The position numbers and the translations under genes are program-made. A model generated the notes under the pieces. It ran no database searches and was not told the origin of the DNA. It saw only the letters and a list, made by a program, of their open reading frames with translations. A DNA stretch of 64,000 nucleotides, taken from Minisyncoccia bacterium. Lineage in GTDB: Bacteria; Patescibacteriota; Minisyncoccia; Phycocordibacterales; GWA1-40-21. Position 1 is the stretch's first letter; every line of letters starts with the position of its first letter. Shown here piece by piece: positions 3,647 through 58,193 of the stretch. The DNA is taken from the NCBI GenBank assembly GCA_049287185.1, contig JBAQFI010000012.1, positions 54,659 through 118,658 of the forward strand, in the 5' to 3' direction.

Positions 3647-4897
3647 ATGACCGCCTCACCCAAAACTCGCAAACCCAAAGTAATTTTTCACATGGATGGT
3701 GATGCTTTTTTTGTTGGAGTAGAAGTGGCTAAGAATCCTAAATTGCGAGGATTGCCAGTGGTGACGGGAGAAGAGCGAGGCATTGTTTCCGCTCTGTCTT
3801 ATGAAGCCAAAGCCCTTGGTATTACGCGCGGTATGCCAACCTACAAAGTTAAAAAAGAATATCCTAAGGTAATTATTTTGCCAGGTGATTATAAAGCTTA
3901 CGCTAAATATTCTAGTGCTATGTTTGATATTGTCCGTCGCTATGCCGATGATGTTGAAGAATATAGTATTGATGAATGTTTTGCAGATCTCACTGGTTTG
4001 GATAAGCCACTCAAGATGACGTACAGGCAAATTGCCGAGCGAATTAAAAGTGAAGTGAATAAGGAATTAGATTTATCAATTTCTATTGGTTTAGCACCAA
4101 GCAAAGTTCTGGCCAAGGTTGCCTCCAAATTTGTTAAGCCCAATGGTCTGACAATTATTGAGAAGGAAACCATCCCAAATTTTCTCGGGAAGACGCCAAT
4201 CGAGAAAATTTGGGGTATTGGTCCGCAGACTGCTTATTTGCTGAAAGATAAGAAAGTTTATTCGGCCTTGGATTTTGTGAATAAAGATTTAAATTGGATT
4301 AAACAAAATCTTTCCCAGCCTTATGAAGTACTGTGGCGAGAAATGAAAGGTGAGTATTTAATGGAAATAGATCCGAAACCTAAAACAGTATATTCTTCCG
4401 TGCAGAAAACTCGTTCATTCAATCCTTTTACCAATGATAAAGTTTTTCTCTTGTCACAACTGTCAAAACATATTGAGGAAGCTTGTACCAAAGCGCGACA
4501 TTACAATCTAATGCCAAGAAAGTTTTCCATTTTTCTCAAAACTAAAGATTTTAGATATTTTACGGCTTCGGCCAATCTGCAATCACCAACCAATGCTCCA
4601 GAGATTATTATTTCTCAAATGCACAAAATGTTTAAAGTGATTTATACCAAAGATGTGCTATACCGCACGACCGGTGTAACTTTATTGTCTCTAGTTTCTG
4701 ATTCAGTGACCCAAAGTGATTTGTTTGGAGATAATGCTCAGGCGAACAGGTTTGAGATTATCCACAAGCAAATTGACTCGCTAGAAGAGAAATTGGGCAA
4801 AAGGGTAGTGTATCTGGCTTCTACTCAAAAAGCCCTCAAACGCAAGGTTAAAGGCACTGAGGCTGATGATTTGGATAGAGATTTGTTGTTTTTGTGA
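3647..4897 (+). CDS. dinB: DNA polymerase IV (Y-family, DinB)
   Basis: VIFHMDGDAFFVGVEV (HVDMDAFFASVE-like), SIDECFADLTG, little-finger region; TGTATAAT extended -10 ends 6 nt before the ATG. Confidence 0.85.
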   Translation: MTASPKTRKPKVIFHMDGDAFFVGVEVAKNPKLRGLPVVTGEERGIVSALSYEAKALGITRGMPTYKVKKEYPKVIILPGDYKAYAKYSSAMFDIVRRYADDVEEYSIDECFADLTGLDKPLKMTYRQIAERIKSEVNKELDLSISIGLAPSKVLAKVASKFVKPNGLTIIEKETIPNFLGKTPIEKIWGIGPQTAYLLKDKKVYSALDFVNKDLNWIKQNLSQPYEVLWREMKGEYLMEIDPKPKTVYSSVQKTRSFNPFTNDKVFLLSQLSKHIEEACTKARHYNLMPRKFSIFLKTKDFRYFTASANLQSPTNAPEIIISQMHKMFKVIYTKDVLYRTTGVTLLSLVSDSVTQSDLFGDNAQANRFEIIHKQIDSLEEKLGKRVVYLASTQKALKRKVKGTEADDLDRDLLFL

Positions 4898-4921
4898 GCA
4901 AAGACTTGTCTTACTCACGAT

Positions 4922-5058
4922 TGTCATTCCCGCGCAGGCGGGAATCCAGCCTTTTTGATTTAAGACTATTTAAGATTCCTGGATTCCCGTCTTCACGGGA
5001 ATGACAGAGGGGAAAACTTAATCCTGGATTGCTTCGCTTCGCTCGCAATGACGGAAGG
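4922..5058. repeat. composite MITE-like repeat cluster with palindromic ends
   Basis: tgtcattcccgcgcaggcgggaatccag (4922-4949), spacer ttttgatttaagactatttaagatt, inverted cctggattcccgtcttcacgggaatgacagagg (4978-5010), plus a third degenerate half-site to 5058. Same composite recurs at 49832-49923. Confidence 0.8.
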
Positions 5059-5113
5059 TGAAGGTGGATGGTAGAGAGGGGTGCAAATAGCACATAATCT
5101 AAATTGTGATAAA

Positions 5114-5515
5114 ATGTTGAATATGAAAAATAATATTGAAACTAAAAAGAATTTCTCGATTTTTAAACGGGCCAAGAGTTTTGCCCATGCTGGTAGGGGA
5201 ATTAAAATATTTTTTAAAACTACCCACAATGCCTGGATTGAACTGGCCCTGTTCATTCTCGCCATTTTTCTCGCTTTTTATTTTAATATCACCGTTTATG
5301 AATTATTGATGCTAATTTTGGTCAGTGGTTTAGTTTTTGTGGCTGAGGCCTTTAACACAGCGATTGAAATCGATATGAACCTCACCTCACCAGAATTTCA
5401 TCCTTTTGCTCGCGACACCAAAGATGTCGCCGCTGGTGCCGTCCTCATTTCGGCTATCACTGCCACTGTTGTTGGTGTGGTGATTTTTATTCCTTATATT
5501 TTAATGTTAATATAA
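5114..5515 (+). CDS. dgkA: diacylglycerol kinase family protein (DgkA/undecaprenol kinase-like)
   Basis: AEAFNTAIEIDMNLTSPEFHPFARDTKDVAAGAVLI matches the DgkA core (NTAIE...KD.AAGAV). ORF-track start 5081 lies inside the repeat; ATG 5114 is more plausible. Confidence 0.65.
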   Translation: MLNMKNNIETKKNFSIFKRAKSFAHAGRGIKIFFKTTHNAWIELALFILAIFLAFYFNITVYELLMLILVSGLVFVAEAFNTAIEIDMNLTSPEFHPFARDTKDVAAGAVLISAITATVVGVVIFIPYILMLI

Positions 5516-5519
5516 AAAT

Positions 5520-5837
5520 ATGGAAAAATTTATTCAACCAGAATACATACCCGCAAAGGAAGAAGTTATTGAAATCATTAAACGCCATGCAGAAAATGCG
5601 ATAGTCACTCGCGAACTGTCTGACGAAAATGGAATCTATTTACTTGAACTAAAAGAAGAAGGAGAAAAACCCGGTAAATTTAATGAATACACATACGTTA
5701 GAAAAGGAGATTTTCCCAATAAACAACAATCACTTTCAACTACAATTTACGTTACATATTATGAGGATGATATTCCTTTCAGTGGCACTAATATTGCCGA
5801 GTATTCTACAGCTGAAGGTTGGAAGGAAATAAAATAA
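5520..5837 (+). CDS. hypothetical protein
   Basis: 105 aa ORF directly after dgkA; no motif recognised. Confidence 0.35.
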   Translation: MEKFIQPEYIPAKEEVIEIIKRHAENAIVTRELSDENGIYLLELKEEGEKPGKFNEYTYVRKGDFPNKQQSLSTTIYVTYYEDDIPFSGTNIAEYSTAEGWKEIK

Positions 5838-5844
5838 AATTTAA

Positions 5845-6408
5845 ATGAACTACACAAAACGAGTAAAGGAATTAAATCAAACATTTAAAGAAATACTGGA
5901 TAAATGTCCAGAACTTACTTTCATAGGCAATCCAATTCTTAGACAAAGGACAGATGATGTTATTCTTGAAGAAGGAATAAAAATTGCGTCTAAGTTAAAG
6001 AAGACACTAGAAACATACAGAGATATAACTGGATTTGGACGTGGACTAGCTGCACCTCAGATTGGTGAATCTAAATCAGTCTTTGTTACTTATGTCGGAG
6101 AAAAATTTAATACATATATTAACCCAAGAATTATTGGAAATTCTTCTAAGTTAAATTATTACCGTGAAAATTGCTTAAGCTGCGGATTTGTTTCGGTAGA
6201 TGTTAGACGACCAATTTCGATTATCATTGAATATACTAATGAAGAAGGAAAGTTACAGAAAGAAAATTTAGATAGCTTTTCTGCACGTTTAATTCAACAT
6301 GAATACGATCACTTAATTGGAATTGTTAACGTTGATAAAGCAGAACAAAATTCAATCGATTTCATGATTAACGATCCTCTTAAAGAAATTTTGAGAGATG
6401 ATAAGTAA
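5845..6408 (+). CDS. def: peptide deformylase
   Basis: Three PDF motifs: GRGLAAPQIG, ENCLSCGF (EGCLS), QHEYDHLIG (HExxH). Confidence 0.85.
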   Translation: MNYTKRVKELNQTFKEILDKCPELTFIGNPILRQRTDDVILEEGIKIASKLKKTLETYRDITGFGRGLAAPQIGESKSVFVTYVGEKFNTYINPRIIGNSSKLNYYRENCLSCGFVSVDVRRPISIIIEYTNEEGKLQKENLDSFSARLIQHEYDHLIGIVNVDKAEQNSIDFMINDPLKEILRDDK

Positions 6409-6502
6409 GCGTACAGGAGTATTTTGCTAGAACTATTCCATTTTATTAATTTCTATGTTAATCTACATTATCAGTTTTCAAATTAATAATTAATCAACCC
6501 AC

Positions 6503-6580
6503 AAAAAGAAGATTAACTGACTGGATCCCCGCCTACGCGGGCACGACAATCAGAATTATCGACTTTACCGGGTAAATAAT
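6503..6580 (+). repeat. 75-nt repeat, copy 1 of 2
   Basis: aaaaagaagattaaCtgactggatccccgcctAcgcgggCacgacaatcagaatTAtcgactttaccgggtaaataAt; near-identical copy at 9891-9967. Both end immediately before an ATG. Confidence 0.85.
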
Positions 6581-6724
6581 ATGGCAAAAAGAGCAGCTCA
6601 GGATATTAAAAATAAGACTTCACGTTCACATAAAACTACCAAACGTTTAGCAATCAAAAAAGCTCGTTTAGCAGCTTTGAAAGTAAAACGTGGGGGGAAG
6701 TACGGAAAGAATAAGCAAAAATAA
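6581..6724 (+). CDS. 47-aa highly basic small protein (ribosomal-protein-like composition, unassigned)
   Basis: Own translation MAKRAAQDIKNKTSRSHKTTKRLAIKKARLAALKVKRGGKYGKNKQK; starts at the end of the repeat, followed 10 nt later by a strong terminator; below the ORF-track length cut-off. Confidence 0.45.
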   Translation: MAKRAAQDIKNKTSRSHKTTKRLAIKKARLAALKVKRGGKYGKNKQK

Positions 6725-6733
6725 TCATTTTAA

Positions 6734-6775
6734 GAAAGCTGGGCTAAGCTTATGCTTAGCCCAGCTTTCTTTTGC
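6734..6775 (+). terminator. rho-independent terminator
   Basis: gaaagctgggctaagc-ttat-gcttagcccagctttc followed by tttt. Confidence 0.8.
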
Positions 6776-6791
6776 GGGTAGTATTAAAACC

Positions 6792-8252
6792 ATGGCTAAA
6801 GACGAAACAATATTAAGATTTGATAAAGTATCATTCGGATACGGTGAAAATTACCCTCTGCTCACAGAGGTAGATTTTTCTGTGCGTCGGGGTACCAAAA
6901 TCACTATCATGGGACAAAATGGTTCTGGTAAAAGTACCATGTTCGGCTTAATTACCAAACGTTTATTGCCAGATGATGGAATTGTAAATATTGTAAACGG
7001 TGTGTCTATTGCCATCTCTCGCCAAGTAATTCCCCGAGACGAGCTCGATCTTTCTGTTCGCGATTTTTTTCAAAAATGTTTTCCAGCCAAGGTTTATGAC
7101 ATTGACCCACGAATTGATGATGTTTTGGAAGTAGTCAATCTCAAAGGTCACGTAAAAGTCCACGATCGAATTGTCAGAACTTTTTCCGGTGGTCAGCAAG
7201 CTCGACTTCTTTTGGCTTCCGCGTTGATTCAAGACCCAGATTTACTTTTGCTTGATGAACCGACCAATAATTTGGACAAAGCTGGTATTGAGCACCTCAC
7301 AGACTATTTGATAAATTACAAAAAAACTTTAATGGTGATTTCTCACGATGCCGACTTTTTGAATAGTTTTACTGATGGAGTTTTGTATTTGGATGTTTAT
7401 ACTAAAAAAATCGAGCAATACGTCGGTAACTATTTTGATGTGCGCGAACAGATTATTGTTCGTCAAGAAAAAGAGAATCGTAAGAATGCTCAACTAGCTA
7501 AAGAAATTCAGGAGAATAAAGACAAAGCCAACTTTTTCGCCAACAAAGGTGGACAAATGCGTCTCGTAGCCAAAAGAATGCGTGAAAAAGCCGAGGAACT
7601 CGAAGAGGAAAAAGTAGATACTAGAAAGGAGGATAGAACCATCCGACCGTTTATTATTCCCGTGCAGGAAAACATTATCGGTGATTTGGTGCATATTACT
7701 CAATATAAAACTTTCGTAAACCACAAGGTGAACAAACGCAAAACCGAAGTTAAACTTCGACGCAAAGAGCATTTGCTTCTCCGTGGTCCAAATGGGATTG
7801 GTAAAAGTACACTGCTGGAATCAATTGCTAAAAACACGGCTGAAGGAACTTTTATTACTCCCGGAGTAAAAATTGGTTATTATCGTCAGGATTTTTCCAC
7901 TTTAAATTTTGAAGACACGGTTTATGATTCCTTGATGGAAGTAATGGACAAAAAGATTGAGGAAACCATGCGAGCGACCGCGGCGAGCTTTCTTATTACT
8001 GCGGATTCCATGTTTACTAAAATCGGAGACTTGTCGGAAGGACAGAAGGGACTAGTAGCTTTCGCACGTTTAGTTTTAGAGAAACCAGGATTACTGATTT
8101 TGGATGAACCAACTAACCACATAAACTTTCGTCATATTCCGATTATTGCTGAAGCATTGAATAAATATGAAGGGGCGATGATTATTGTTAGTCACGTGCC
8201 GGACTTTGTGGCGAAGATTCGAATTGACCAGATTTTGGATTTGGAGAAATAA
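6792..8252 (+). CDS. ABC-F family ATPase (two NBDs, no TMD; EttA/Uup-like translation factor)
   Basis: NBD1 GQNGSGKST, FSGGQQARLLLA, LLLLDEPTNNLD; NBD2 GPNGIGKSTLL, LSEGQKGLVAFA, LILDEPTNHI. Start at MAKDETILRF (6792) rather than the ORF-track 6690. Confidence 0.8.
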   Translation: MAKDETILRFDKVSFGYGENYPLLTEVDFSVRRGTKITIMGQNGSGKSTMFGLITKRLLPDDGIVNIVNGVSIAISRQVIPRDELDLSVRDFFQKCFPAKVYDIDPRIDDVLEVVNLKGHVKVHDRIVRTFSGGQQARLLLASALIQDPDLLLLDEPTNNLDKAGIEHLTDYLINYKKTLMVISHDADFLNSFTDGVLYLDVYTKKIEQYVGNYFDVREQIIVRQEKENRKNAQLAKEIQENKDKANFFANKGGQMRLVAKRMREKAEELEEEKVDTRKEDRTIRPFIIPVQENIIGDLVHITQYKTFVNHKVNKRKTEVKLRRKEHLLLRGPNGIGKSTLLESIAKNTAEGTFITPGVKIGYYRQDFSTLNFEDTVYDSLMEVMDKKIEETMRATAASFLITADSMFTKIGDLSEGQKGLVAFARLVLEKPGLLILDEPTNHINFRHIPIIAEALNKYEGAMIIVSHVPDFVAKIRIDQILDLEK

Positions 8253-8269
8253 GTCTAACCATCTACGTT

Positions 8270-8352
8270 TGTCATTCCCGCGCAGGCGGGAATCCAGATT
8301 AATAATTTAAAAAGAAAGACTGGATCCCCGCATTCGCGAGGATGACAGAGGG
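8270..8352. repeat. composite MITE-like repeat
   Basis: tgtcattcccgcgcaggcgggaatccag, spacer attaataatttaaaaagaaag, inverted actggatccccgcattcgcgaggatgacagagg. Confidence 0.8.
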
Positions 8353-8896: not shown

Positions 8897-9250
8897 ATGA
8901 AAGCTAAAATCAAACCTAAATCTAGAAAGTATTATGTCTATGTGCTAGAGTGTGCAGACAAGACACTATACATTGGCTATACCACTGATTTGGGAAACCG
9001 AGTTTTAGCTCACAATAGTTTAAAAACTGGTGCTAAGTATACTAAAGCGAGAAGACCAGTGAAGTTGGTTTATTCAGAAAAGTTTAAGACCTTGAGTCAG
9101 GCACTGAAAAGAGAGTTCGCTCTAAAACAGATGACTAGGCTAGAAAAATTGGAGTTAATCAATAAAAATGCGCGAGAACAGTCCGCGTACAAAAATTCCT
9201 CGTCATTGCGAGCGAAAGCGAAGCAATCTAGACCTAAGTCTAAAATTTAA
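8897..9250 (+). CDS. GIY-YIG nuclease family protein (UPF0213-like)
   Basis: YYVYVLECADKTLYIGYTTDLGNRVLAHN gives the GIY-x10-YIG motif with conserved R and H; Lys-rich tail. Confidence 0.75.
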   Translation: MKAKIKPKSRKYYVYVLECADKTLYIGYTTDLGNRVLAHNSLKTGAKYTKARRPVKLVYSEKFKTLSQALKREFALKQMTRLEKLELINKNAREQSAYKNSSSLRAKAKQSRPKSKI

Positions 9251-9254
9251 TTAA

Positions 9255-9296
9255 ATCCTGGATTGCCACGGATGAAATACATCCTCGCAATGACGG
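9255..9296. repeat. solo palindromic repeat (variant family)
   Basis: cctggattgccacggatgaaatacatcctcgcaatgacgg is the reverse-oriented copy of the family seen at 37576-37614. Confidence 0.7.
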
Positions 9297-9890: not shown

Positions 9891-9967
9891 AAAAGAAGAT
9901 TAATTGACTGGATCCCCGCCTCCGCGGGGACGACAATCAGAATCGTCGACTTTACCGGGTAAATATT
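9891..9967 (+). repeat. 75-nt repeat, copy 2 of 2
   Basis: aaaagaagattaaTtgactggatccccgcctCcgcgggGacgacaatcagaatCGtcgactttaccgggtaaataTt, directly followed by ATG at 9968. Confidence 0.85.
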
Positions 9968-10237
9968 ATGAAAAGAATTTGGTTTAGAAGAAAATTGTAT
10001 GGTTGGGGTTGGTACCCGGTTACCTGGGAAGGCTGGTTAGTTATTCTTGTATATATCGCGCTCATTTTGACGCTCGCTTTAACAAGGGAAGAATATATAC
10101 CTGGAAATCCTGATTCAGGAAGCAATTTCCTGGTATTCGCCCTGCCAATTATTGTGCTGACTATTCTTCTAATAACCATCTCTTATAAGAAAGGTGAGAA
10201 ACCACGTTGGCAGTGGGGGAAGAGAATTGAAGATTAA
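9968..10237 (+). CDS. small membrane protein, hypothetical
   Basis: 89 aa; Trp-rich N-terminus and two TM helices; starts at the end of the repeat. Confidence 0.45.
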   Translation: MKRIWFRRKLYGWGWYPVTWEGWLVILVYIALILTLALTREEYIPGNPDSGSNFLVFALPIIVLTILLITISYKKGEKPRWQWGKRIED

Positions 10238-10252
10238 AAATGTTGTCTACCA

Positions 10253-10292
10253 AAAGTCATTCGCCAAAAATGGCGAATGACTTTTATATTTG
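10253..10292 (+). terminator. rho-independent terminator (hairpin related to the repeat stem)
   Basis: aaagtcattcgcc-aaaaat-ggcgaatgacttt followed by tatatttgtgtttt; a similar TCATTCGCC hairpin recurs at 47208. Confidence 0.7.
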
Positions 10293-10327: not shown

Positions 10328-11908
10328 ATGTCAGCTCAAACGAATCGAAACAACCTTATTTGTAGTGTTTCAGACCTAAACAAAAATTTTGTTAATTTTG
10401 TGGCGCTCAAAAACGTTAATTTGACCATACTAGAAGGTGAAAAGATTGGACTAGTTGGTGCTAATGGCTCTGGCAAGACGACCTTACTCAAAATATTAGC
10501 CAAACTGATGCCAGCAGACAGTGGGGTGATAAATATTCCAAAGAGCCTGAAAGTTGCTTATATTCCTCAGGAATTTCATGTTCATCATGATTCAACAGTT
10601 AAGGATTTTATATATTCACTTGGTACTGTAGCTGAAGGGGAACTTTTTACTTTGCTCGGACGATTAGAACTTAATCCCAACCTACTAGAGCGACAAATGT
10701 CTAACTTGTCTGGTGGTGAAAAAACTAAAATCGGACTATTACGAATTTTATTATCCGATTTTGATTTCTATCTGCTAGACGAACCAACCAATAATTTAGA
10801 TTTGAAAGCTCTGGCAATTTTAGAAAAATTTGTGAAAGATAGTGCAAAAACTTTTTTGATTATTTCTCATGACCGTGAATTTCTGGATCAAACTGTTGGG
10901 AAAATTGCCGAGATTAATGAGCACAATCACTCACTGAAAGTTTTTGCTGGAAACTTTACAGCCTATCGTGAACAACGAGAAGCCGATATTGAGCGTGAAT
11001 GGAGTAAATATAATGACAAGATGCAACAGGCTGGAAAAATGGAAATAGACATGGATAACAAGTTTTCCTGGATGAAGAAAATTGAAAAAGTTCGTTTCGG
11101 TATTCGTGATTTGCCGAAGAATGAAAAAGAAAAGGGTTGTGCCGCTTATCTTCGTGATAAGGAGGCTAAGGCTGGACGCCGACTTCGAGTAGCAAAAGAC
11201 CGCCTAGAGAAATTTGAAGAAGATACAGAGGATATTGAAAAGCCAAAAGAACTGCTGCCACTACATGTAAATTTTGAAATTGATAAAAGAAGTGGTGACA
11301 AAGTATTTGAAGTTAAAGATGTTACTAAAAAATTCAAAAATCACAGTTTAGGTCCAATAAACCTGGAAGTTACTTATGGCGACAGAATTTTAATCACTGG
11401 CAATAATGGCTCCGGCAAAACCACACTCCTAAAAATAATTCTTGGGCAAGTAAAGCCTGATGCCGGAGAAATAAAAACTGGTCAAAGTATTCAGCTGGGC
11501 TATTTACCACAGACTGAAGATTTTTTGCCAGAAAATACTTTACTTGAGGAATTTATGAAACATACAGAAATCGAGGAGGGAACAGGACGCAAGTTGCTCA
11601 ATCGTTTTCGTTTGACCGTTGATGATGTTCATAAGAAAATTTCACAACTAAGCTCTGGTGAAAGATCACGTTTAACTTTGGCGATTATTATGACGAGAAA
11701 AGCTAATTGTTTGATTTTGGATGAGCCATCAAACCATTTAGATTTGGAGGTTTTAAGCGAATTAGAAAAAGCTCTTAAGGACTATAAAGGCACTTTGATT
11801 GTAGTCAGTCACGACCGCTATTTTGTAAAACGAGTGGGGTTTGATATTATGTTGGAACTACAGGATGGTGAATTAACTCATTTTAGGCACAGACATTTGG
11901 TGGTTTAG
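10328..11908 (+). CDS. ABC-F family ATPase, second paralog
   Basis: GANGSGKTTLL, LSGGEKTKIGLL, YLLDEPTNNLD; second NBD GNNGSGKTTLL, LSSGERSRLTLA, LILDEPSNHLD. Start at MSAQTNR (10328). Confidence 0.8.
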   Translation: MSAQTNRNNLICSVSDLNKNFVNFVALKNVNLTILEGEKIGLVGANGSGKTTLLKILAKLMPADSGVINIPKSLKVAYIPQEFHVHHDSTVKDFIYSLGTVAEGELFTLLGRLELNPNLLERQMSNLSGGEKTKIGLLRILLSDFDFYLLDEPTNNLDLKALAILEKFVKDSAKTFLIISHDREFLDQTVGKIAEINEHNHSLKVFAGNFTAYREQREADIEREWSKYNDKMQQAGKMEIDMDNKFSWMKKIEKVRFGIRDLPKNEKEKGCAAYLRDKEAKAGRRLRVAKDRLEKFEEDTEDIEKPKELLPLHVNFEIDKRSGDKVFEVKDVTKKFKNHSLGPINLEVTYGDRILITGNNGSGKTTLLKIILGQVKPDAGEIKTGQSIQLGYLPQTEDFLPENTLLEEFMKHTEIEEGTGRKLLNRFRLTVDDVHKKISQLSSGERSRLTLAIIMTRKANCLILDEPSNHLDLEVLSELEKALKDYKGTLIVVSHDRYFVKRVGFDIMLELQDGELTHFRHRHLVV

Positions 11909-12685: not shown

Positions 12686-13417
12686 TTACTGAGTGCAACC
12701 ATAAGTACAATTTCCTTTGCAGGGCATGCTTCGAATGGTACAGGCCCGCCAGTGATGTTCCACATGAGTAACTTTACAAAATTTTCTCAGACCGCATTCA
12801 TCGTAAGTATCGCAGATTGGATCAAGAAATTCCTCCCGGCGTTTTTTGAATTCTTCAGTTCCTCCATTTTTGCTGAAGTGATCCAGTAGCCAGTCGGGAT
12901 TTTCAAAAAGGGCGAAGTCATCACAGAGACGTTCACGACGCGTGCAGTCTCTGTTGACTGGACAGGTGAGAGCAATGATAGCTTCTTCCAAGTTGAACTT
13001 TTCACTGCACAAACCAAAGAGCGAACTCTGTTTCGTGCGTGATTGAATCGTTTGTCTCTTCAAAACCTCAATAGTTTCAGCAGGTGGACATCTGCCCATG
13101 CATTTCAAACGCGGAAGTGGACAGTCCTTCCAGTAGTGAACAACGCGATAAATCATACAGTTATTGGCCTGAGGGCAGGACTTGTAATAACTGCAAATTT
13201 TCTCAACGTAATCACCATGTTTCTTCATGAAGGCCTCGACACCACCATTTGACTTCAGATGATTCACCAAAAATTCTGGATGTTCAAACAACATCAAATC
13301 GTTACAGCGATGTTCCTCCCTCGTACCATTGCGGTTTAAGGGACAAGTAAGAGAAAAGGCAATAAAATCCCAATTCTCTCTACCAGCCTGTAACTTTTTT
13401 ACCATCTGAGTGATCAT
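12686..13417 (-). CDS. Cys/His-rich protein with an internal tandem duplication (putative metal-binding, unassigned family)
   Basis: Two ~95-aa repeats: TCPLNRNGTREEHRCNDLMLFEHPEFLVNHLKSNGGVEAFMKK... and TCPVNRDCTRRERLCDDFALFENPDWLLDHFSKNGGTEEFKK..., each with 8-10 Cys. Confidence 0.5.
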   Translation of the reverse strand: MITQMVKKLQAGRENWDFIAFSLTCPLNRNGTREEHRCNDLMLFEHPEFLVNHLKSNGGVEAFMKKHGDYVEKICSYYKSCPQANNCMIYRVVHYWKDCPLPRLKCMGRCPPAETIEVLKRQTIQSRTKQSSLFGLCSEKFNLEEAIIALTCPVNRDCTRRERLCDDFALFENPDWLLDHFSKNGGTEEFKKRREEFLDPICDTYDECGLRKFCKVTHVEHHWRACTIRSMPCKGNCTYGCTQ

Positions 13418-18551: not shown

Positions 18552-18690
18552 TCTGTCATCCTCGCGCACCACAAGGGCATTTCCATTTTCTAATCGCTAT
18601 GCTCAAGAAGATTAGGTCATTGCGGGGATCTAGAGATTATATTTATATGCGAATAATCCTGGATTCCCGCCTGCGCGGGAATGACAAAAT
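18552..18690. repeat. repeat cluster: half-palindrome, RS-like 52-nt element, half-palindrome, solo palindrome
   Basis: tgtcatcctcgcg, caccacaagggcatttccattttctaatcgctatgctcaagaagattaggtc, attgcggggatc, then aatcctggattcccgcctgcgcgggaatgacaaaat. Confidence 0.8.
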
Positions 18691-20360: not shown

Positions 20361-20492
20361 TGTCATTCCCGACTCGATCGGGAATCCAGGAATCAATATG
20401 TAGTCTTAATACAAAAAGACTGGATCCCCGTCTTCACGGGGATGACAAAGAGTGGGGAATAAAAAATTGATATATACGGGAATGACAGAAAT
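20361..20492. repeat. composite MITE-like repeat plus extra half-site
   Basis: tgtcattcccgactcgatcgggaatccagg, spacer, gactggatccccgtcttcacggggatgacaaagag, then acgggaatgacagaaatg. Confidence 0.8.
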
Positions 20493-37575: not shown

Positions 37576-37716
37576 CGTCATTGCGAGGATGTATTCATCC
37601 GTGGCAATCCAGGATTTTTTTAGGATTAGGTCTTACCACAAGGGTATTTCCAATTTCTAATCGCTTCGCTCAAGAAATTTAGGTCTGGATTGCTTCGCAA
37701 GGCTCGCAATGACGAA
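37576..37716. repeat. repeat cluster: variant palindrome, RS-like element, half-site
   Basis: tcgtcattgcgaggatgtattcatccgtggcaatccagg; accacaagggtatttccaatttctaatcgcttcgctcaagaaatttaggtc; ctggattgcttcgcaaggctcgcaatgacg. Confidence 0.8.
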
Positions 37717-47201: not shown

Positions 47202-47207
47202 TTAAAA

Positions 47208-47275
47208 AGTCATTCGCCAAAAAAGGCGAATGAAGTTAAAACAAAAACCATCTCAGTAAGGTGGTTTTTGTTTGC
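47208..47275 (+). terminator. tandem hairpins, second with U-tract
   Basis: gtcattcgcc-aaaaaa-ggcgaatga then aaaaacca-tctcagtaagg-tggtttttgtttg; a further hairpin aagaagagg-ggattgg-cctcttctt (47297-47321) serves the minus-strand gene. Confidence 0.6.
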
Positions 47276-49705: not shown

Positions 49706-49923
49706 TCATTCTCGCGCACCACCAGGATATTTCCATTTTCTCCACTCGCTCTCCCTTCTGTCATTCTCTCTTATTTTCCGTCATTGCGAGAAAGTATTCT
49801 GACGAAGCAATCCAGGATTAATTTTTTCCCTCTGTCATTCCCGCATAGGCGGGAATCCAGTTTTTTGGTTTTAAGACTGATTAAGATTCCTGGGTTCCCG
49901 TTGTCACGGGAATGACAGAAAGA
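49706..49923. repeat. large repeat cluster: RS-like fragment, variant palindrome, composite MITE-like element
   Basis: caccaccaggatatttccattttc; ccgtcattgcgagaaagtattctgacgaagcaatccagg; ctgtcattcccgcataggcgggaatccag, spacer ttttttggttttaagactgattaagatt, inverted cctgggttcccgttgtcacgggaatgacagaaag. Confidence 0.8.
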
Positions 49924-49951: not shown

Positions 49952-50836
49952 CTATTTATTAGCAAAATAACTAAATAAAGCTTTAATACCAGCCAGATTC
50001 TTCTCCCACTCTATCGTTTCGTGGGTCTTGAGTTCCACAGTTATAGCCGGAATGTTTATTGAAGCCAACCAACCCTCAGCGTCACCAGTGACCGGGTAAC
50101 TATTAAAGGTATCAATGGCTGGATAACCCGCGGCCTTGGCGAAGATATTCATAATATTTGAAGTTTCAAAGAGAATACCGGATTCACATTCTGAAGCGTA
50201 AACGGCATTTGATTGACTGTGCCAAAAAATTACAGCTTTAGGTTTGCTTTGTAAAACAAAATCTCTGATCGCCTTGGCTTCTGGTTCAGAAAAGGCTTCT
50301 GTTCCAGCACTGACAATTTTTGCTCTCCAGGTACTGGTTGCTTGCCATTTACAATTAAAGTTTCGATTTAAATCAACATTATTAGCATTAAAGCGACCAA
50401 TAGATTCATCTGTACCAGTAGGAATGTCAGTTAATTCAAAGCGACCCTCTTTACCGATTACTTTATAAACTCCATCTGGATTAGCAGAAGGAATTATTGT
50501 AACAGTTAATTTCTCCGGAATAACGCTTGGATTTGCTTTTAAATAGTCCAAAAATTTATAAGCTAAAAGTACACTGTTCCATTCGTAACCACCGTGAATA
50601 CCGCCAACGAAAGCAATATGAGTTGGACCATTTCCAAAAGTATAAGCCTCGATTGATCTATTTTCGACAGATTTTCCAATAGTTGTTTGACTAAAAACTG
50701 GGCTGTTTGTCTCCGTGACAATCGGTTCTATTTGTTTTGACTTATAATTTAGAAAAATAACAAAGGCAACTACAACAATAATCACAGTTACGATTGTAAC
50801 TGTGATTATTGTTTGTTTAGTAAAAAACAATTTCAT
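49952..50836 (-). CDS. membrane-anchored M14-family zinc carboxypeptidase
   Basis: FVGGIHGGYEWNS, NANNVDLNRNF (M14 NRN motif); N-terminal TM. Confidence 0.65.
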   Translation of the reverse strand: MKLFFTKQTIITVTIVTVIIVVVAFVIFLNYKSKQIEPIVTETNSPVFSQTTIGKSVENRSIEAYTFGNGPTHIAFVGGIHGGYEWNSVLLAYKFLDYLKANPSVIPEKLTVTIIPSANPDGVYKVIGKEGRFELTDIPTGTDESIGRFNANNVDLNRNFNCKWQATSTWRAKIVSAGTEAFSEPEAKAIRDFVLQSKPKAVIFWHSQSNAVYASECESGILFETSNIMNIFAKAAGYPAIDTFNSYPVTGDAEGWLASINIPAITVELKTHETIEWEKNLAGIKALFSYFANK

Positions 50837-51759
50837 TATTTTGCGTAATTGTTAAGGACAGCCTTAATACCTGCCAAGTTCTTTGTCCATTCAGTATCTT
50901 TATGATTGGTGAGTAGAACGCTAATAGCTGGAACATTTTGTTTAGCTAACCAGTTAACCATGTCTCCAGTGATAGCGTAGTAGTCAAATTCTTCATAGGC
51001 AGGGTAACCAGAGGCTTTAGCAAAGAGGTTAGTTAATTTTGCGGTTTCTGTTGACACTCCATTGTGACAACTGGAAGAATAAACACCACCAGCGGCACTG
51101 TACCAAGCCACCACTGCTTTTGGTCCTTTCATATCAACATAAGTTTTTATGGCTAGACTTTCTGGCTCAGAAAAGGCGGCTGATCCACCACTGACTGTTC
51201 GGCTTTGCCATTTACCGGTTGTTTGCCAGTCACAATCAAAGTTACGATTTAGGTCAACAGTATTAGCATTAAAGCGTCCAGGAATAGTTGCAGTTTCGGA
51301 AGTTGGGATGTCAGACATACTAAAACGAGAAGAAGTGCCGACTACTTTGTTTAAACCATCAGGATTCAAAACTGGAATCACAGTAACCTTAACATTTGAC
51401 GGGATTACATTTGGATTAGCTTTTAAATAATCCATTGCTTCGAAAGCAACGAGTGATGTATTCCATTCATAACCACCGTGAATACCGCCAACGAATAAAA
51501 TCTCATCTGCACCAGTACCATAGTGATATGCGGTGATTGGCAGACCATTAACTGAGGTACCTATAATAGTTTCGTCTTTATTGATAGGTTTTGAACTGGT
51601 AGCAATATAGGGATTGTTGATATTTTTTTGGATATCAGTCGCTGTATTTGTATTTTCAGGAATAGCAGAATTTTTTGGAGATGAGCTAGTAAAATAATAA
51701 ACACCAACACCTAAAAGAACGATAACTACGACTAAGATAATTATATTATTTCTTTTCAT
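50836..51759 (-). CDS. membrane-anchored M14-family zinc carboxypeptidase, paralog
   Basis: FVGGIHGGYEWNT, NANTVDLNRNF; abuts the previous gene. Confidence 0.65.
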   Translation of the reverse strand: MKRNNIIILVVVIVLLGVGVYYFTSSSPKNSAIPENTNTATDIQKNINNPYIATSSKPINKDETIIGTSVNGLPITAYHYGTGADEILFVGGIHGGYEWNTSLVAFEAMDYLKANPNVIPSNVKVTVIPVLNPDGLNKVVGTSSRFSMSDIPTSETATIPGRFNANTVDLNRNFDCDWQTTGKWQSRTVSGGSAAFSEPESLAIKTYVDMKGPKAVVAWYSAAGGVYSSSCHNGVSTETAKLTNLFAKASGYPAYEEFDYYAITGDMVNWLAKQNVPAISVLLTNHKDTEWTKNLAGIKAVLNNYAK

Positions 51760-52050: not shown

Positions 52051-54354
52051 ATGATGAAAAATAAGTTGATGGTCGTTATCGTTCTAGTAGCTTTTTTTAT
52101 TAGTATTGCTGGTTCAGTCTTTGCCGCAACCTTCATCGATCTTAATACGGCTGATGACTTTGCTGTTTTAGCTGGCTCCACAATAACCAACTCTGGTTCC
52201 TCCGTGATTACTGGTGATTTAGGATTAAGTCCAGGTCTTTCTGTTACTGGTTTTCCACCTGGTACTGTCAGTGGAACACAACATATAGCTGATGCAGCCG
52301 CTGTACAGGCAAAGGTGGATCTCACCTCAGCCTATAATGACGCAGCAGGACAGACACCGGTTTCTACTGTACCGACTGAACTTGGTGGAACTACAAAAAA
52401 TGCCGGTATTTATGATTCTGCAGATGGTACATTTGAAATTACTGGAACATTAACACTTGATGCTCAAGGAGATCCAAATGCTGTTTTTATCTTTAAGACA
52501 GCCACCACTCTTAATACAGCTGGCGCAAGTAGTATTGTACTTGCTAATGATGCTCAGGCCTGTAATGTTTTTTGGCAGGTAGGTAGTTCTGCCACTCTCG
52601 GTGCCAATTCAACCTTTAAAGGAAATATTTTAGCTTTAACTTCAGTTACATTAACAACTGGTGCTGATGTGGAAGGTAGAGTCTTAGCTAGAAATGGTGC
52701 TGTGACATTGGATACTAATGATATAGCCATTGCTACTTGTGCAGCCTCACCTCAACTTACTGTCACTAAAACAGTTGATAATACTGGTGGTGGAACCAAA
52801 CTAATTTCCGACTTTCCACTCTTCATCGATGGTAGCAGTGTGACTTCAGCAGTAGCTAGTACAACCACCATTGGTTTACACACAGTTACTGAAACTACCG
52901 ATCCAAATTACACCTCAACTATTGGTGGTGATTGTGCTGCCAACGGTACTATTACATTGGCAATGGGTGAGGAAAAGACTTGTTCCATTACTAATACTTA
53001 TGTTCCTGCTTCACCAGGTACACTTCATATAATTAAACAAGTTACAAATAATAACGGTGGAACAGCTATTGCCAGTGACTTCACCTTAAATGTTACAGGA
53101 ACCAATGTTTCCTCCAGTTCATTTTCTGGTTCTGCAGCCGGAGTGGATATCACTTTGGACGCTGGTTCATATACTGTCACTGAACCAATCATTCCAACAG
53201 GTTATTTACAATCAGGTTCTGGTACTTGTTCTGGAACAATAGCTTCCGGTGAAACTATTACCTGTACTATTACTAATGACGATGTCGCCCCACAACTGAT
53301 AGTGAACAAAATTGTTATTAATGACAACGGCCGAACCAAACTAATTTCCGACTTTCCACTATTTATCGACGGCAGCAGTGTTGTTTCTGGAGTCGCTAGT
53401 ACTACAACTATCGGAAGTCATACTGTCACTGAAACTACTGATTCAAATTATACTTCAGCCTTCGGTGGCGATTGTGCAGCTGATGGTACGGTTAGTTTAG
53501 CCTTAGGTGAAGTGAAGACATGTACTGTTACTAATGATGATGTGACCCCACCTTCTTCTGGTGGTGGTTCCCGTCATTATGCACCACCATTAATAGATAT
53601 AATAAAAATACCAAGTCCCTTAGCTCTACCTAAAGGTCCTGGCTCTGTAACATATACCTATACACTCAGTAATATTGGAACAGTTCCTGTGTCAGATATC
53701 ACTATGGTTGATGATTCCTGTAGTCCGGTATCCTTAATTTCTGGGGATACAAATGCGGATAATATGTTAGATCTTGATGAAGCCTGGATTTATCGCTGTT
53801 CAAAAATTATATCAAAAACCAGCACAAACATTGTCACAGCAACTGGTTGGTCCCATGGTGTAAGTGCGACAGATATAGCCAATGCCACAGTCGTAGTGGG
53901 AGTTTCGGTAGTGCCACCATTAATTCACGTCACAAAAATTCCGAACCCTCTTACTTTACCAGCTGAGGGAGGAATAGTTACCTATACAAATAAGGTTACT
54001 AATCCTGGAACAGTATCATTAAGCAACGTTCGTCTCACCGATGATAAATGTAGTCCAGTAAAATATATTTCAGGTGATTTAAACAATAATTCAAAGCTAG
54101 AAACTACAGAAACCTGGATTTATACTTGCCAGTCTAAACTCACTAAAACCACTGTAAATACTGTTACCGCGAGTGGTGATGCAAATAGTTTAACAGCAAA
54201 GGATTTTGCTATTGCCACAGTTATTGTAGCGGCACCAAAATTACCAAATACGGGAATTGGTTCTGACGAGGGAAGTCTTCTCTGGTATATTATTGCATTA
54301 GCTGGAATATTTTTGGTTCTACTATATTTTTATTTTATTCGAAGAAAAAAATAG
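52051..54354 (+). CDS. LPXTG-anchored surface protein: signal peptide, ice-binding-like DUF3494 domain, repeated DUF11/Ig-like domains, sortase signal
   Basis: SP ...SVFA-ATF; FAVLAGSTITNSGSSVITGDLGLSPG...AVFIFKTATTL...NVFWQVGSSATLGANSTFKGNILALTSVTL; repeated TVDNTGGGTKLISDFPLFIDGSSV modules; C-terminal LPNTG + TM + RRKK. Confidence 0.8.
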   Translation: MMKNKLMVVIVLVAFFISIAGSVFAATFIDLNTADDFAVLAGSTITNSGSSVITGDLGLSPGLSVTGFPPGTVSGTQHIADAAAVQAKVDLTSAYNDAAGQTPVSTVPTELGGTTKNAGIYDSADGTFEITGTLTLDAQGDPNAVFIFKTATTLNTAGASSIVLANDAQACNVFWQVGSSATLGANSTFKGNILALTSVTLTTGADVEGRVLARNGAVTLDTNDIAIATCAASPQLTVTKTVDNTGGGTKLISDFPLFIDGSSVTSAVASTTTIGLHTVTETTDPNYTSTIGGDCAANGTITLAMGEEKTCSITNTYVPASPGTLHIIKQVTNNNGGTAIASDFTLNVTGTNVSSSSFSGSAAGVDITLDAGSYTVTEPIIPTGYLQSGSGTCSGTIASGETITCTITNDDVAPQLIVNKIVINDNGRTKLISDFPLFIDGSSVVSGVASTTTIGSHTVTETTDSNYTSAFGGDCAADGTVSLALGEVKTCTVTNDDVTPPSSGGGSRHYAPPLIDIIKIPSPLALPKGPGSVTYTYTLSNIGTVPVSDITMVDDSCSPVSLISGDTNADNMLDLDEAWIYRCSKIISKTSTNIVTATGWSHGVSATDIANATVVVGVSVVPPLIHVTKIPNPLTLPAEGGIVTYTNKVTNPGTVSLSNVRLTDDKCSPVKYISGDLNNNSKLETTETWIYTCQSKLTKTTVNTVTASGDANSLTAKDFAIATVIVAAPKLPNTGIGSDEGSLLWYIIALAGIFLVLLYFYFIRRKK

Positions 54355-56957: not shown

Positions 56958-58193
56958 ATGAAGAAATACGACGTTATTGTTATCGGTGGTGGTCCAGCTG
57001 GCCTAATGGCAGCCAATACAGCAGCTAAAAATGGCGCTAAAGTTTTGGTATTGGAAAAAAACTCTGAACTAGGTAAAAAACTTCTCTTAACTGGCGGTGG
57101 AAGATGTAACCTTACTAATGCGGAAATGGATGTCAGAAAGTTTGTCAGTAAATTTGATAAAAAAGGACAAGTTTTGTTTTCTCCATTCTCAGTATTTGGA
57201 GTGAAGGAAACAATCGAATATTTCAATGTGCGAGGATTGGAGACCAAAATTGAGCCAGGTAATAGGGTTTTTCCGGTGACTGACAAAGCCATAGACGTAC
57301 TAAACATATTAATAGCTGAGGCTAAAAAGTATAAAGTTGAGTTTATTTTTGGTGTTGAAGTAACCGGCTTTGAATATAAAAAGGGAAGTATTACTGGTAT
57401 AAAAAGTAATCGAGAAATTTATCACGCAAATAATTATATTTTAGCCACTGGAGGCATGTCACATCAAGAAACCGGTTCCACTGGAGATGGTTTTAACTGG
57501 CTCAAAGAAATTGGTCATAATGTGATCACTCCACAGCCATCACTGGTACCGGTTAAAGTTTTAGAAAAATGGGTTAAGAATTTATCTGGTGTCGGATTAG
57601 ATATGGTTGGAATAAATTTGTATCAAAATAAAAAAGTAGTAGCAAAAAAAACAGGGAAAATATTATTTACACATTTTGGATTAAGCGGACCAGCTATTTT
57701 AAATTTTAGTAAAACTATTCGTGATTATCTGGCAGGCGGCAATGTTTTACTCAAACTTGATTTGTTTCCTGGAGTTGGACTAGACAAACTTGAGGATGAC
57801 TTCCAAAATTTAATTAAGGATAATTTAAATAAATTAATTAAAAATTTAACTTGGGAAAAGCTTCCAACTAATCTTTTACAAACTGTATTTGAACTGGCAA
57901 AAATTGATACTGATAAACAATTAAACTCCTTAACTCGCGAGGAGAGATTGACTATTCTAACCTTATTTAAAGCCATGCCACTCACTGTTATTGATTTACT
58001 AGGTTTTGAACACGCCATTATCTCTAGTGGTGGAGTTGATATAAACGAGGTTGAATTTAAAACTATGCAATCAAAAATTTATAAAAATTTATTTTTAGTT
58101 GGTGATGTACTAGACTTTGATAGACCATCAGGTGGATTTAGTTTACAACTTTGTTGGACGACAGGGTATGTCGCTGGAAATTCTATAAAATAA
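56958..58193 (+). CDS. HI0933-like FAD-binding flavoprotein (aminoacetone oxidase family)
   Basis: YDVIVIGGGPAGLMAA, GKKLLLTGGGRCNLTN, C-terminal GDVLDFDRPSGGFSLQ. Confidence 0.75.
   Translation: MKKYDVIVIGGGPAGLMAANTAAKNGAKVLVLEKNSELGKKLLLTGGGRCNLTNAEMDVRKFVSKFDKKGQVLFSPFSVFGVKETIEYFNVRGLETKIEPGNRVFPVTDKAIDVLNILIAEAKKYKVEFIFGVEVTGFEYKKGSITGIKSNREIYHANNYILATGGMSHQETGSTGDGFNWLKEIGHNVITPQPSLVPVKVLEKWVKNLSGVGLDMVGINLYQNKKVVAKKTGKILFTHFGLSGPAILNFSKTIRDYLAGGNVLLKLDLFPGVGLDKLEDDFQNLIKDNLNKLIKNLTWEKLPTNLLQTVFELAKIDTDKQLNSLTREERLTILTLFKAMPLTVIDLLGFEHAIISSGGVDINEVEFKTMQSKIYKNLFLVGDVLDFDRPSGGFSLQLCWTTGYVAGNSIK

Follow-up and report, generated by a model that had tools for sequence, protein, structure and literature searches.

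The 64,000-nucleotide (nt) window analysed here (contig JBAQFI010000012.1 of assembly GCA_049287185.1, positions 54,659 to 118,658, forward strand) comes from a Minisyncoccia bacterium of the Patescibacteria and has a GC content of 36%. A repeat block of about 80 nt occurs in it twice, each time in the non-coding leader of a small gene: at the first locus this gene encodes a hyper-basic protein of 47 amino acids (aa), and at the second an 89-aa membrane protein. At both loci the small gene is followed by a terminator hairpin and an ABC-F ATPase gene. The block is probably a composite, in which a hairpin repeat related to the Neisseria Transformation Sequence (NTS), dRS3 and Ssn-related motif (SRM) repeats stands side by side with an older 19-nt motif at the two loci. 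The features concerned are as follows.

6454–6503, plus strand: conserved promoter-like block upstream of copy 1, with TCTACA-17-AATAAT at 6462–6490 (consensus scan)
6504–6580, plus strand: repeat copy 1 (A-rich 5′ flank, hairpin, linker and motif), up to the ATG that begins the 47-aa gene
6521–6548, minus strand: hairpin of copy 1, of a degenerate NTS/SRM type and lengthened by an outer stem; the minus strand reads TGTCGTGCCCGCGTAGGCGGGGATCCAG
6562–6580, plus strand: 19-nt motif of the 47-aa locus, ACTTTACCGGGTAAATAAT, with its palindrome at 6564–6576
6581–6724, plus strand: gene for the 47-aa hyper-basic protein, MAKRAAQDIKNKTSRS.KT.KRLAIK family
6732–6774, plus strand: intrinsic terminator of the 47-aa gene, an 18-bp stem followed by a T run
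6792–8252, plus strand: ABC-F ATPase paralogue 1, two ABC_tran domains; NF000355 at 321 bits, below the 380-bit cut-off
8897–9250, plus strand: gene for a single-domain GIY-YIG nuclease, candidate Ssn homologue; Pfam GIY-YIG, E 5.5e-15
9891–9967, plus strand: repeat copy 2, from 6 nt past the stop codon of EngB up to the ATG that begins the 89-aa gene
9907–9935, minus strand: hairpin of copy 2, of a degenerate NTS/SRM type; the minus strand reads TGTCGTCCCCGCGGAGGCGGGGATCCAG
9949–9967, plus strand: 19-nt motif of the 89-aa locus, ACTTTACCGGGTAAATATT, with its palindrome at 9951–9963; identical in the related contig L087
9968–10237, plus strand: gene for the 89-aa conserved membrane protein
10252–10285, plus strand: terminator hairpin of the 89-aa gene, from a second, separate hairpin repeat family
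10328–11908, plus strand: ABC-F ATPase paralogue 2; NF000355 at 431 bits, above the cut-off; TATAAT 6 nt before the ATG

Alignment of 6504–6583 with 9891–9970 revealed 74 identical positions out of 80 (92.5%, the ATG counted) without a gap, so the two copies of about 90% identity described in the first-pass annotation are present where it placed them, and both do abut an ATG, at 6581 (47 aa) and 9968 (89 aa). Identity is spread along the block: 16/17 in the A-rich 5′ flank, 26/28 in a 28-nt GC-rich hairpin, 11/13 in a 13-nt linker and 18/19 in the motif. Sub-strings of the block occur at only these two sites in the 64 kb (0–0.12 expected from shuffles), the window holds no third full copy, and no occurrence of the linker was found outside the two blocks. 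Public scans covered the last 17–19 nt of the block by exact match, with the 5′ flank, hairpin and linker outside the search; this part of the motif has no further copy in GTDB species representatives or JGI metagenome contigs, and across these two collections and viral contigs the matches were at chance level, with the exception of one metagenome contig, L067.

The hairpin and its repeat family

The paper describing the Ssn nuclease family (Nat Commun 2025; PMC11893778) defines the NTS as CGTCATTCCCGCGMAVGCGGGAATCYRG, the older dRS3 repeat as ATTCCC-N8-GGGAAT and the SRM as the degenerate pattern HGTCWY..RNCYNB. This hairpin system is known from Neisseria, Wolbachia and other, mostly Gram-negative, bacteria, and the repeat class is suspected of genome-wide spread (PMC11893778). 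The block hairpins had been described as palindromes of the ATTCCC-N8-GGGAAT type. They are relatives of that type, but degenerate in both copies, where the sequence is GGATCCCCGCC..GCGGG(G/C)AC, and neither matches the NTS consensus at up to 1 mismatch (5 mismatches each). Both are inverted repeats within the 20–50 nt range with asymmetric conserved flanks, having kept the GTC..ATCCAG ends, and both fold as single-stranded DNA (copy 1, −9.6 kcal/mol, z −4.4; copy 2, −10.1 kcal/mol, z −2.9). They differ from each other at 2 positions, compared with 4–6 differences from nine other hairpins, and they alone share the derived change GTCAT>GTCGT. Judged by sequence, the block hairpins are thus degenerate derivatives of the NTS/SRM family and not strict members of it.

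Closer matches to the published repeats are found elsewhere in the window. An initial search returned 12 sites akin to the block hairpin; five hairpins (4922, 8270, 17900 and 18659, and 49833 with a loop variant) read TGTCATTCCCGCGCAGGCGGGAATCCAG, a form one mismatch from the NTS consensus, and individually stand at one or two mismatches from it. The published SRM pattern has 8 sites in the window versus 0.04 in dinucleotide shuffles, and the perfect dRS3 pattern has 6, neither block hairpin among them. A looser pattern anchored on the GTCAT...ATCCAG ends retrieved about 19 hairpins, which fall into at least three stem subfamilies. The second of these, GTCATTGCGAG....GCAATCCAG, has the ends of the NTS-like copies and a different stem; the third, with an ATCCCCG stem, includes both block hairpins. 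Of the approximately 19 hairpins, nine are concentrated in the stretch from 4.9 to 10 kb that surrounds the GIY-YIG gene, in part as clusters and pairs.

4922–5052, strand not assigned: three SRM-type hairpins clustered between the pol IV and diacylglycerol kinase genes
8270–8347, strand not assigned: inverted pair of SRM hairpins between ABC-F paralogue 1 and a convergent 145-aa gene
9202–9294, strand not assigned: two SRM-type hairpins in inverted arrangement, of the subfamily with the ATTGCGAG stem, adjoining the 3′ end of the GIY-YIG gene
5024–5052, 9202–9231, 9258–9294, 37577–37612, 37685–37713 and 49780–49815: sites of the second stem subfamily

The GIY-YIG protein has 117 aa with the Pfam domain at residues 11–82, and so agrees with the description of Ssn proteins as single-domain nucleases of fewer than 150 aa; its closest solved relatives in the PDB are the UPF0213 proteins EF2693 (6e-17) and BH0048 (4e-16). 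Its gene lies between the two block copies and is abutted at its 3′ end by the hairpin pair at 9202–9294. The last 17 or so codons (..SSLRAKAKQSRPKSKI) run through the first hairpin of this pair, which gives 117 aa here versus 99 aa in the related metagenome contig L001.

The resemblance to the NTS/dRS3/SRM system is close. The hairpin agrees in its length of 28 nt, in its asymmetric ends (GTCAT...ATCCAG) and in its stem (ATTCCCGCG..GCGGGAAT), and its numerous intergenic copies often form inverted pairs and are grouped round, and abut, a small GIY-YIG gene. The host, in contrast, is a Patescibacteria metagenome-assembled genome, from a phylum unmentioned in the text of PMC11893778; the block copies are degenerate (GTCGT, 5 mismatches to the NTS), and at least three stem subfamilies coexist in the window. 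Window hairpins and GIY-YIG gene together appear to be a candidate Ssn/SRM pairing in Patescibacteria, which would bring this pairing to an ultra-small genome with nearly the same sequence and again beside a small GIY-YIG gene.

Mosaic repeat blocks offer a second comparison. The NIMEs of Neisseria and the REP/BIME blocks of enterobacteria recombine between loci and often sit right after stop codons. NIMEs and REP-BIME arrays likewise combine hairpin and non-hairpin repeat segments in mosaic intergenic blocks (PMC11893778), whereas the 19-nt motif here is tied to two specific start codons, across species, and is not dispersed. No RAYT or IS200-type transposase gene was noticed in the window, for which no systematic search was made. 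One SRM hairpin, at 18659–18686, overlaps the first ATG (in GGGAATGACA) of a 557-aa open reading frame (ORF) starting at 18681, the true start of which may be a downstream ATG.

The start-proximal motif and the history of the leaders

The motif ACTTTACCGGGTAAATAwT stands directly before both ATGs and contains a perfect 13-bp palindrome of 6-1-6 form, TTTACC-G-GGTAAA, which ends 4 nt before the start codon at both loci. These are the only two exact palindrome sites in the window, where near-matches (up to 2 mismatches) are at chance level, with 7 sites versus 4.4 expected. Comparison with two syntenic contigs revealed that the motif has a history separate from that of the hairpin. L001 is syntenic with the window from 3.6 to 9.9 kb, with genes 81–87% identical. 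Its 47-aa gene is preceded by ...agtcaaaACTTTACCGGGTAAATAAcATG and keeps ACTTTACCGGGTAAATAAcATG, so that the first 18 nt of the motif at the 47-aa locus are identical in the two genomes, whereas an unrelated AT-rich palindrome, TTTTGACTGAAAAATCTCCGATTTTTAACTAGTCAAAA, replaces the SRM unit and linker. L087 is syntenic with 9.9–12.6 kb (89% identical). Its 89-aa gene is preceded by ...aatcaaaACTTTACCGGGTAAATATTATG and keeps ACTTTACCGGGTAAATATTATG, and directly upstream of the motif lies a canonical SRM of reversed orientation, which is 100% identical to the window hairpin at 20416–20445. The motif is thus kept in L001 without an SRM and in L087 with an inverted one, which argues that it predates the repeat at both loci and, as far as these alignments go, that it already preceded the two ATGs in the ancestor which the window organism recently shared with L001/L087; the hairpin beside it, by the same comparison, was gained, swapped or flipped among close relatives. 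In more distant orthologues the motif is missing: L088 has TATAATtaaagtATG before the 89-aa gene, the leader of the 47-aa gene in L002, L091 and L095 is plain AT-rich sequence, and no near-match of the palindrome was found upstream of the orthologous genes in these more distant relatives.

The two block copies differ by 7.5%, which is less than the 13–19% by which orthologous genes of the window and L001 diverge. Together with the shared GTCGT and the unique linker, this points to recent copying of the block from one locus of this genome to the other, after the species split. Such copying would have made hairpin unit, linker and motif near-identical at both loci, its likely route being ectopic recombination, or gene conversion, with the shared motif as anchor. 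The leaders would accordingly be a natural case of gene leaders remodelled by SRM-type repeats, where the hairpin at a single site was acquired, inverted or exchanged among close relatives.

Two other histories were considered. A relic of an old segmental duplication of a whole module (leader, small ORF, terminator and ABC-F gene) would explain why the layout is the same at both loci, and the two ABC-F genes are near neighbours in L091. The ABC-F paralogues, however, are 28% identical and the small ORFs unrelated, yet the leaders are 92.5% identical, and close relatives have a different hairpin part at the orthologous loci. Such a duplication could explain the present identity only with recent copying added, and we consider it very improbable; an ancient duplication of the module as such was rejected on the 28% identity of the ABC-F paralogues.

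The second is the proposal of the first-pass annotation that the repeat is a portable 5′ untranslated region (UTR) or promoter, that is, a mobile unit of 75–80 nt that would, as a whole, supply the gene behind it with a promoter, 5′ UTR or signal for translation start. Two near-identical copies, each ending exactly at an ATG, are what such a cassette would leave; its core belongs to a repeat class suspected of spreading (PMC11893778), and it is at precisely this position that relatives have acquired or exchanged hairpins. The part of the proposal that holds is that the block is leader sequence, apparently copied between two genes. The piece that abuts the ATG, however, is ancestral, as L001 and L087 carry these 19 nt without the remainder of the block. 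A mobile element would be expected to have several dispersed copies with defined ends and unrelated genes downstream, but there are two copies in the 64 kb, and the scans, which covered the motif only, found the ATG-proximal motif nowhere else. Neither terminal inverted repeats nor a target-site duplication were found around the block. The survey for further copies preceding start codons went against the proposal as well: hairpin-family copies elsewhere in the window lie after stop codons or between genes and do not abut start codons. A cassette of this kind is therefore improbable in our estimate, and the composite of a younger hairpin unit and an inherited motif is preferred.

The promoter part of the proposal was not borne out. 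No sigma-70-type promoter fits inside the block, and no −35 element is conserved across the window copies, L001 and L087. A leaderless promoter inside the motif was also considered and rejected, since the sole −10-like hexamer, TAAATA, ends 2 nt before the ATG, which is too close; the pattern of this genome is TATAAT 6–9 nt before the ATG. This arrangement was found at 13/54 ORFs versus 3/54 at a control offset (TATAAT 5–9 nt before the ATG, for example, at the genes at 3647, 10328, 20519, 32554, 42530 and 58478), and suggests that leaderless transcripts may be widespread in this organism. The absence of a Shine–Dalgarno sequence from the two small genes, which had been singled out as unusual, is the norm in this genome, a core (GGAG/GAGG/AGGA) being present upstream of just 8 of the 54 ORFs that reach 120 aa.

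A more plausible promoter candidate lies outside the repeat. The segment 6454–6503 is 49/50 identical to L001, versus gene identity of about 84%, and forms a promoter-like block about 90 nt before the start codon of the 47-aa gene. Transcription would then start near 6497, and with that start the whole repeat would fall within the leader RNA. We propose that the block is transcribed in the leaders of two monocistronic small genes, each with its own terminator.

In predicted RNA folds of copy 1 and L001, the 5′ sequence ACCC..AAA(G) is paired with (C)UUU..GGGU of the motif and AAAUAAUAUG is open, so the 5′ half of the motif may pair with the start of the leader. The two folds enclose different apical hairpins and have z-scores of −2.6 and −2.4. 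A structured leader, in which hairpin and motif form a 5′ stem-loop controlling mRNA stability or translation and selection acts on position while the sequence can be swapped, would accommodate this closed leader with its free segment, and also the fact that each of the five contexts has a hairpin 3–13 nt before the motif, namely an SRM in the two window copies and in L087, the AT-rich palindrome in L001 and a further hairpin in L067. Against it, copy 2 (z −1.6) and L087 (z −1.3) fold less convincingly, the sequences compared number three or four, and, hairpins being common throughout the intergenic regions of this genome, their co-occurrence with the motif may be incidental. Nor is there a match to an Rfam family: the covariance models of Rfam 15 at the gathering score found only tRNAs in the window, and by E-value the repeat blocks returned only FtrB, at 9895–9946 on the minus strand, with 20.8 bits versus a gathering score of 66 (E 0.54); other weak Rfam matches fell on terminators and coding sequence. 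We regard RNA-level control of this kind as a possible but rather unlikely alternative.

The motif is most likely the piece of the block that matters. Folded alone, the palindrome gives −0.9 kcal/mol (z 0.1), which is too weak for a hairpin, and recognition of the double-stranded DNA by a dimeric protein therefore fits better. We accordingly favour the motif as a candidate binding site of a dimeric regulator that overlaps the start region, with the structured leader as the alternative. The hairpin is in this scheme most likely a passenger, and at most a 5′ stem-loop or a 3′ hairpin of the upstream EngB gene. Like repressor operators, the palindrome is perfect over 13 bp and fixed 4 nt from two start codons, across species; unlike them, it is known from two sites in the window and has no identified cognate regulator. 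We know of no operator consensus that the half-site TTTACC recalls. If the assignment is right, the motif would be a candidate regulatory site in a phylum in which gene control is scarcely known.

Several points weigh against this account as a whole. The strict SRM pattern is absent from both 6521–6548 and 9907–9935, which have GTCGT where GTCWY is required; for the hairpin of copy 1 this is the sole departure from the pattern. The ancestry of the motif rests on two comparisons, with one relative per locus, and we infer the direction and mechanism of the copying. The promoter call is a consensus match in AT-rich DNA, with 19 hits versus 14 expected in the scanned region, and the z-scores of the leader folds are modest (−1.6 to −2.6, from three or four sequences). 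No regulator gene for the palindrome was identified in the window; the ArsR-like gene beside the L001 locus is absent from it.

Further observations concern the related loci. The 1.6-kb contig L067 has, at 1511–1534 on the minus strand, 24 nt (AGTCAAAACTTTACCGGGTAAATA) in common with the L001 leader; there they belong to the opening codons of a gene for an HI0933-like oxidoreductase, which has a GTG start (MSVKTLPGKYDVVIIGGGPAG), and are preceded by a hairpin. The window orthologue of this gene (56958–58193) is without such a motif. In the interval that separates the pol IV gene from the diacylglycerol kinase gene, the three SRM-type hairpins of the window (4898–5113) correspond in position to the ArsR-family gene of L001 (4963–5433), and the peptide deformylase gene and a 105-aa gene present in the window (5520–6408) are absent from this place in L001.

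The small genes and their ABC-F neighbours

The 47-aa ORF, missed by gene callers, proved to be genuine, as the first-pass annotation had supposed. A word-indexed search returned 61 homologues, and an exhaustive hidden Markov model (HMM) search (hmmsearch, 1.84 billion representative proteins) returned 82 clusters at 50% identity. Nearly all members are 33–60 aa long, most of them 33–50 aa; they share the signature MAKR...(K)NKTSRS.KT.KRLAIK, and those with a named organism are from Patescibacteria or unclassified bacteria. In four comparisons, codons with synonymous and non-synonymous changes were in ratios of 7:3, 19:7, 14:7 and 17:9, about 2:1, which supports a conserved gene under purifying selection. 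The terminator reported behind it is likewise real, its structure being kept in L091 and L095 with a different stem sequence. Pfam and NCBIfam have no match to the 47-aa protein, and with gene callers and Pfam both missing it, this is an unannotated family of conserved basic proteins, mostly 35–50 aa long.

The earlier guess that the protein resembles ribosomal bL32 or bS21 survives only as a weak resemblance to bL32, with no significant match in Pfam or the PDB. Among 37 family members searched against Pfam, Ribosomal_L32p was the only family touched, by 4/37 and below its gathering threshold (best E 0.47); the bL32 HMM gave E 2.7 on the 47-aa ORF, and the family profile found no solved structure in the PDB. 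By hhalign, DIKNKTSRSHKTTKRLA aligned with the bL32 N-terminal signature VPKRRTSKSRR..RR at a probability of 48% when the narrower family alignment was used and of 17% for the broader one, over 16–17 columns and with a bL32 alignment that was checked against PDB bL32 chains. The corresponding value for bL28 was a probability of 0.1%, from bL28 sequences that had no separate validation. Like bL32 (PF01783), the protein is small and very basic, and one JGI record labels a homologue L32; unlike bL32, the family has no C-terminal zinc-ribbon-type domain. No zinc ribbon, equivalent C-terminal domain or CxxC was present in 28 sequences inspected from the 82 clusters, in which the tail is Lys/Arg-rich and helical. 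Loss of bL32 is reported for Saccharibacteria and some Peregrinibacteria, and not for Parcubacteria-type lineages (PMC9297842, PMC9698310). A minimal bL32 is, on this alignment evidence, a weak and doubtful lead.

Linkage of the 47-aa gene to ABC-F paralogue 1 is kept in L001, L091–L094 and L095, and not in L002–L005. In other lineages (L091, 2782–3411; L002, 3980–4561) the small basic gene directly follows one for a Lys-rich treble-clef zinc-finger protein of about 200 aa (PF23477, E ~1e-14), which occupies the place where a YceD-like neighbour had been sought.

The order of small ORF, strong terminator and ABC-F gene at each locus is reminiscent of leader-peptide attenuation, an arrangement of antibiotic-resistance ABC-F genes. 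The small ORFs would then sense ribosome stalling, with the terminators gating read-through into the ABC-F genes, and the conserved linkage of the 47-aa gene to ABC-F paralogue 1 could be taken in the same sense. Both small ORFs, however, encode conserved stand-alone proteins under purifying selection and occur without a downstream ABC-F gene in L002–L005 and L088–L090; no alternative anti-terminator pairing is evident, and ABC-F paralogue 2 has its own TATAAT 6 nt before the ATG. Attenuation is highly unlikely as an explanation, and a role of the 47-aa gene as an ABC-F leader peptide was rejected because the protein is conserved and is also found away from ABC-F genes.

A broader scheme can be drawn up in which hairpin and motif form a lineage-specific module that co-regulates two small genes upstream of ABC-F paralogues, the 47-aa product is ribosome-associated and possibly a minimal bL32 relative without the zinc ribbon, and SRM recombination moves leaders between genes. 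We consider this scheme speculative and unlikely to hold in full. The explanation favoured here, a hairpin repeat of the class that fills the intergenic spaces of this genome beside an inherited motif, is mostly ordinary and does not overturn current views. The hairpin-repeat system was described in 2025; what is of modest interest here is the pairing in Patescibacteria, the hot spot of hairpin turnover, the protein family and the palindrome.

The 89-aa membrane protein at 9968 is also a real gene, as claimed, with 850 homologues, many of which likewise begin with a short MKKIWF.. N-terminus, so the native start is the ATG at 9968. Its terminator hairpin belongs to the second hairpin repeat family, AAAAGTCATTCGCCAAAAATGGCGAATGACTTTT, which occurs in the window at 10252–10285 and 47205–47233 and in L087 at 343–376. 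In L001 the family is found at 4994–5024, 5078–5110 (approximately) and 5404–5431, where it flanks the ArsR-like helix-turn-helix gene. Two observations lie outside these loci. A Cys-rich 243-aa ORF (12686–13417, minus strand) contains an internal duplication, with CP.NR..TR.E..C.D..LFE.P..L..H..KNGG occurring twice. Direct repeats are present inside large ORFs at 50279–51280 and 52729–53543 (121 nt at 79% and 275 nt at 71%) and probably encode repeat domains of surface proteins.

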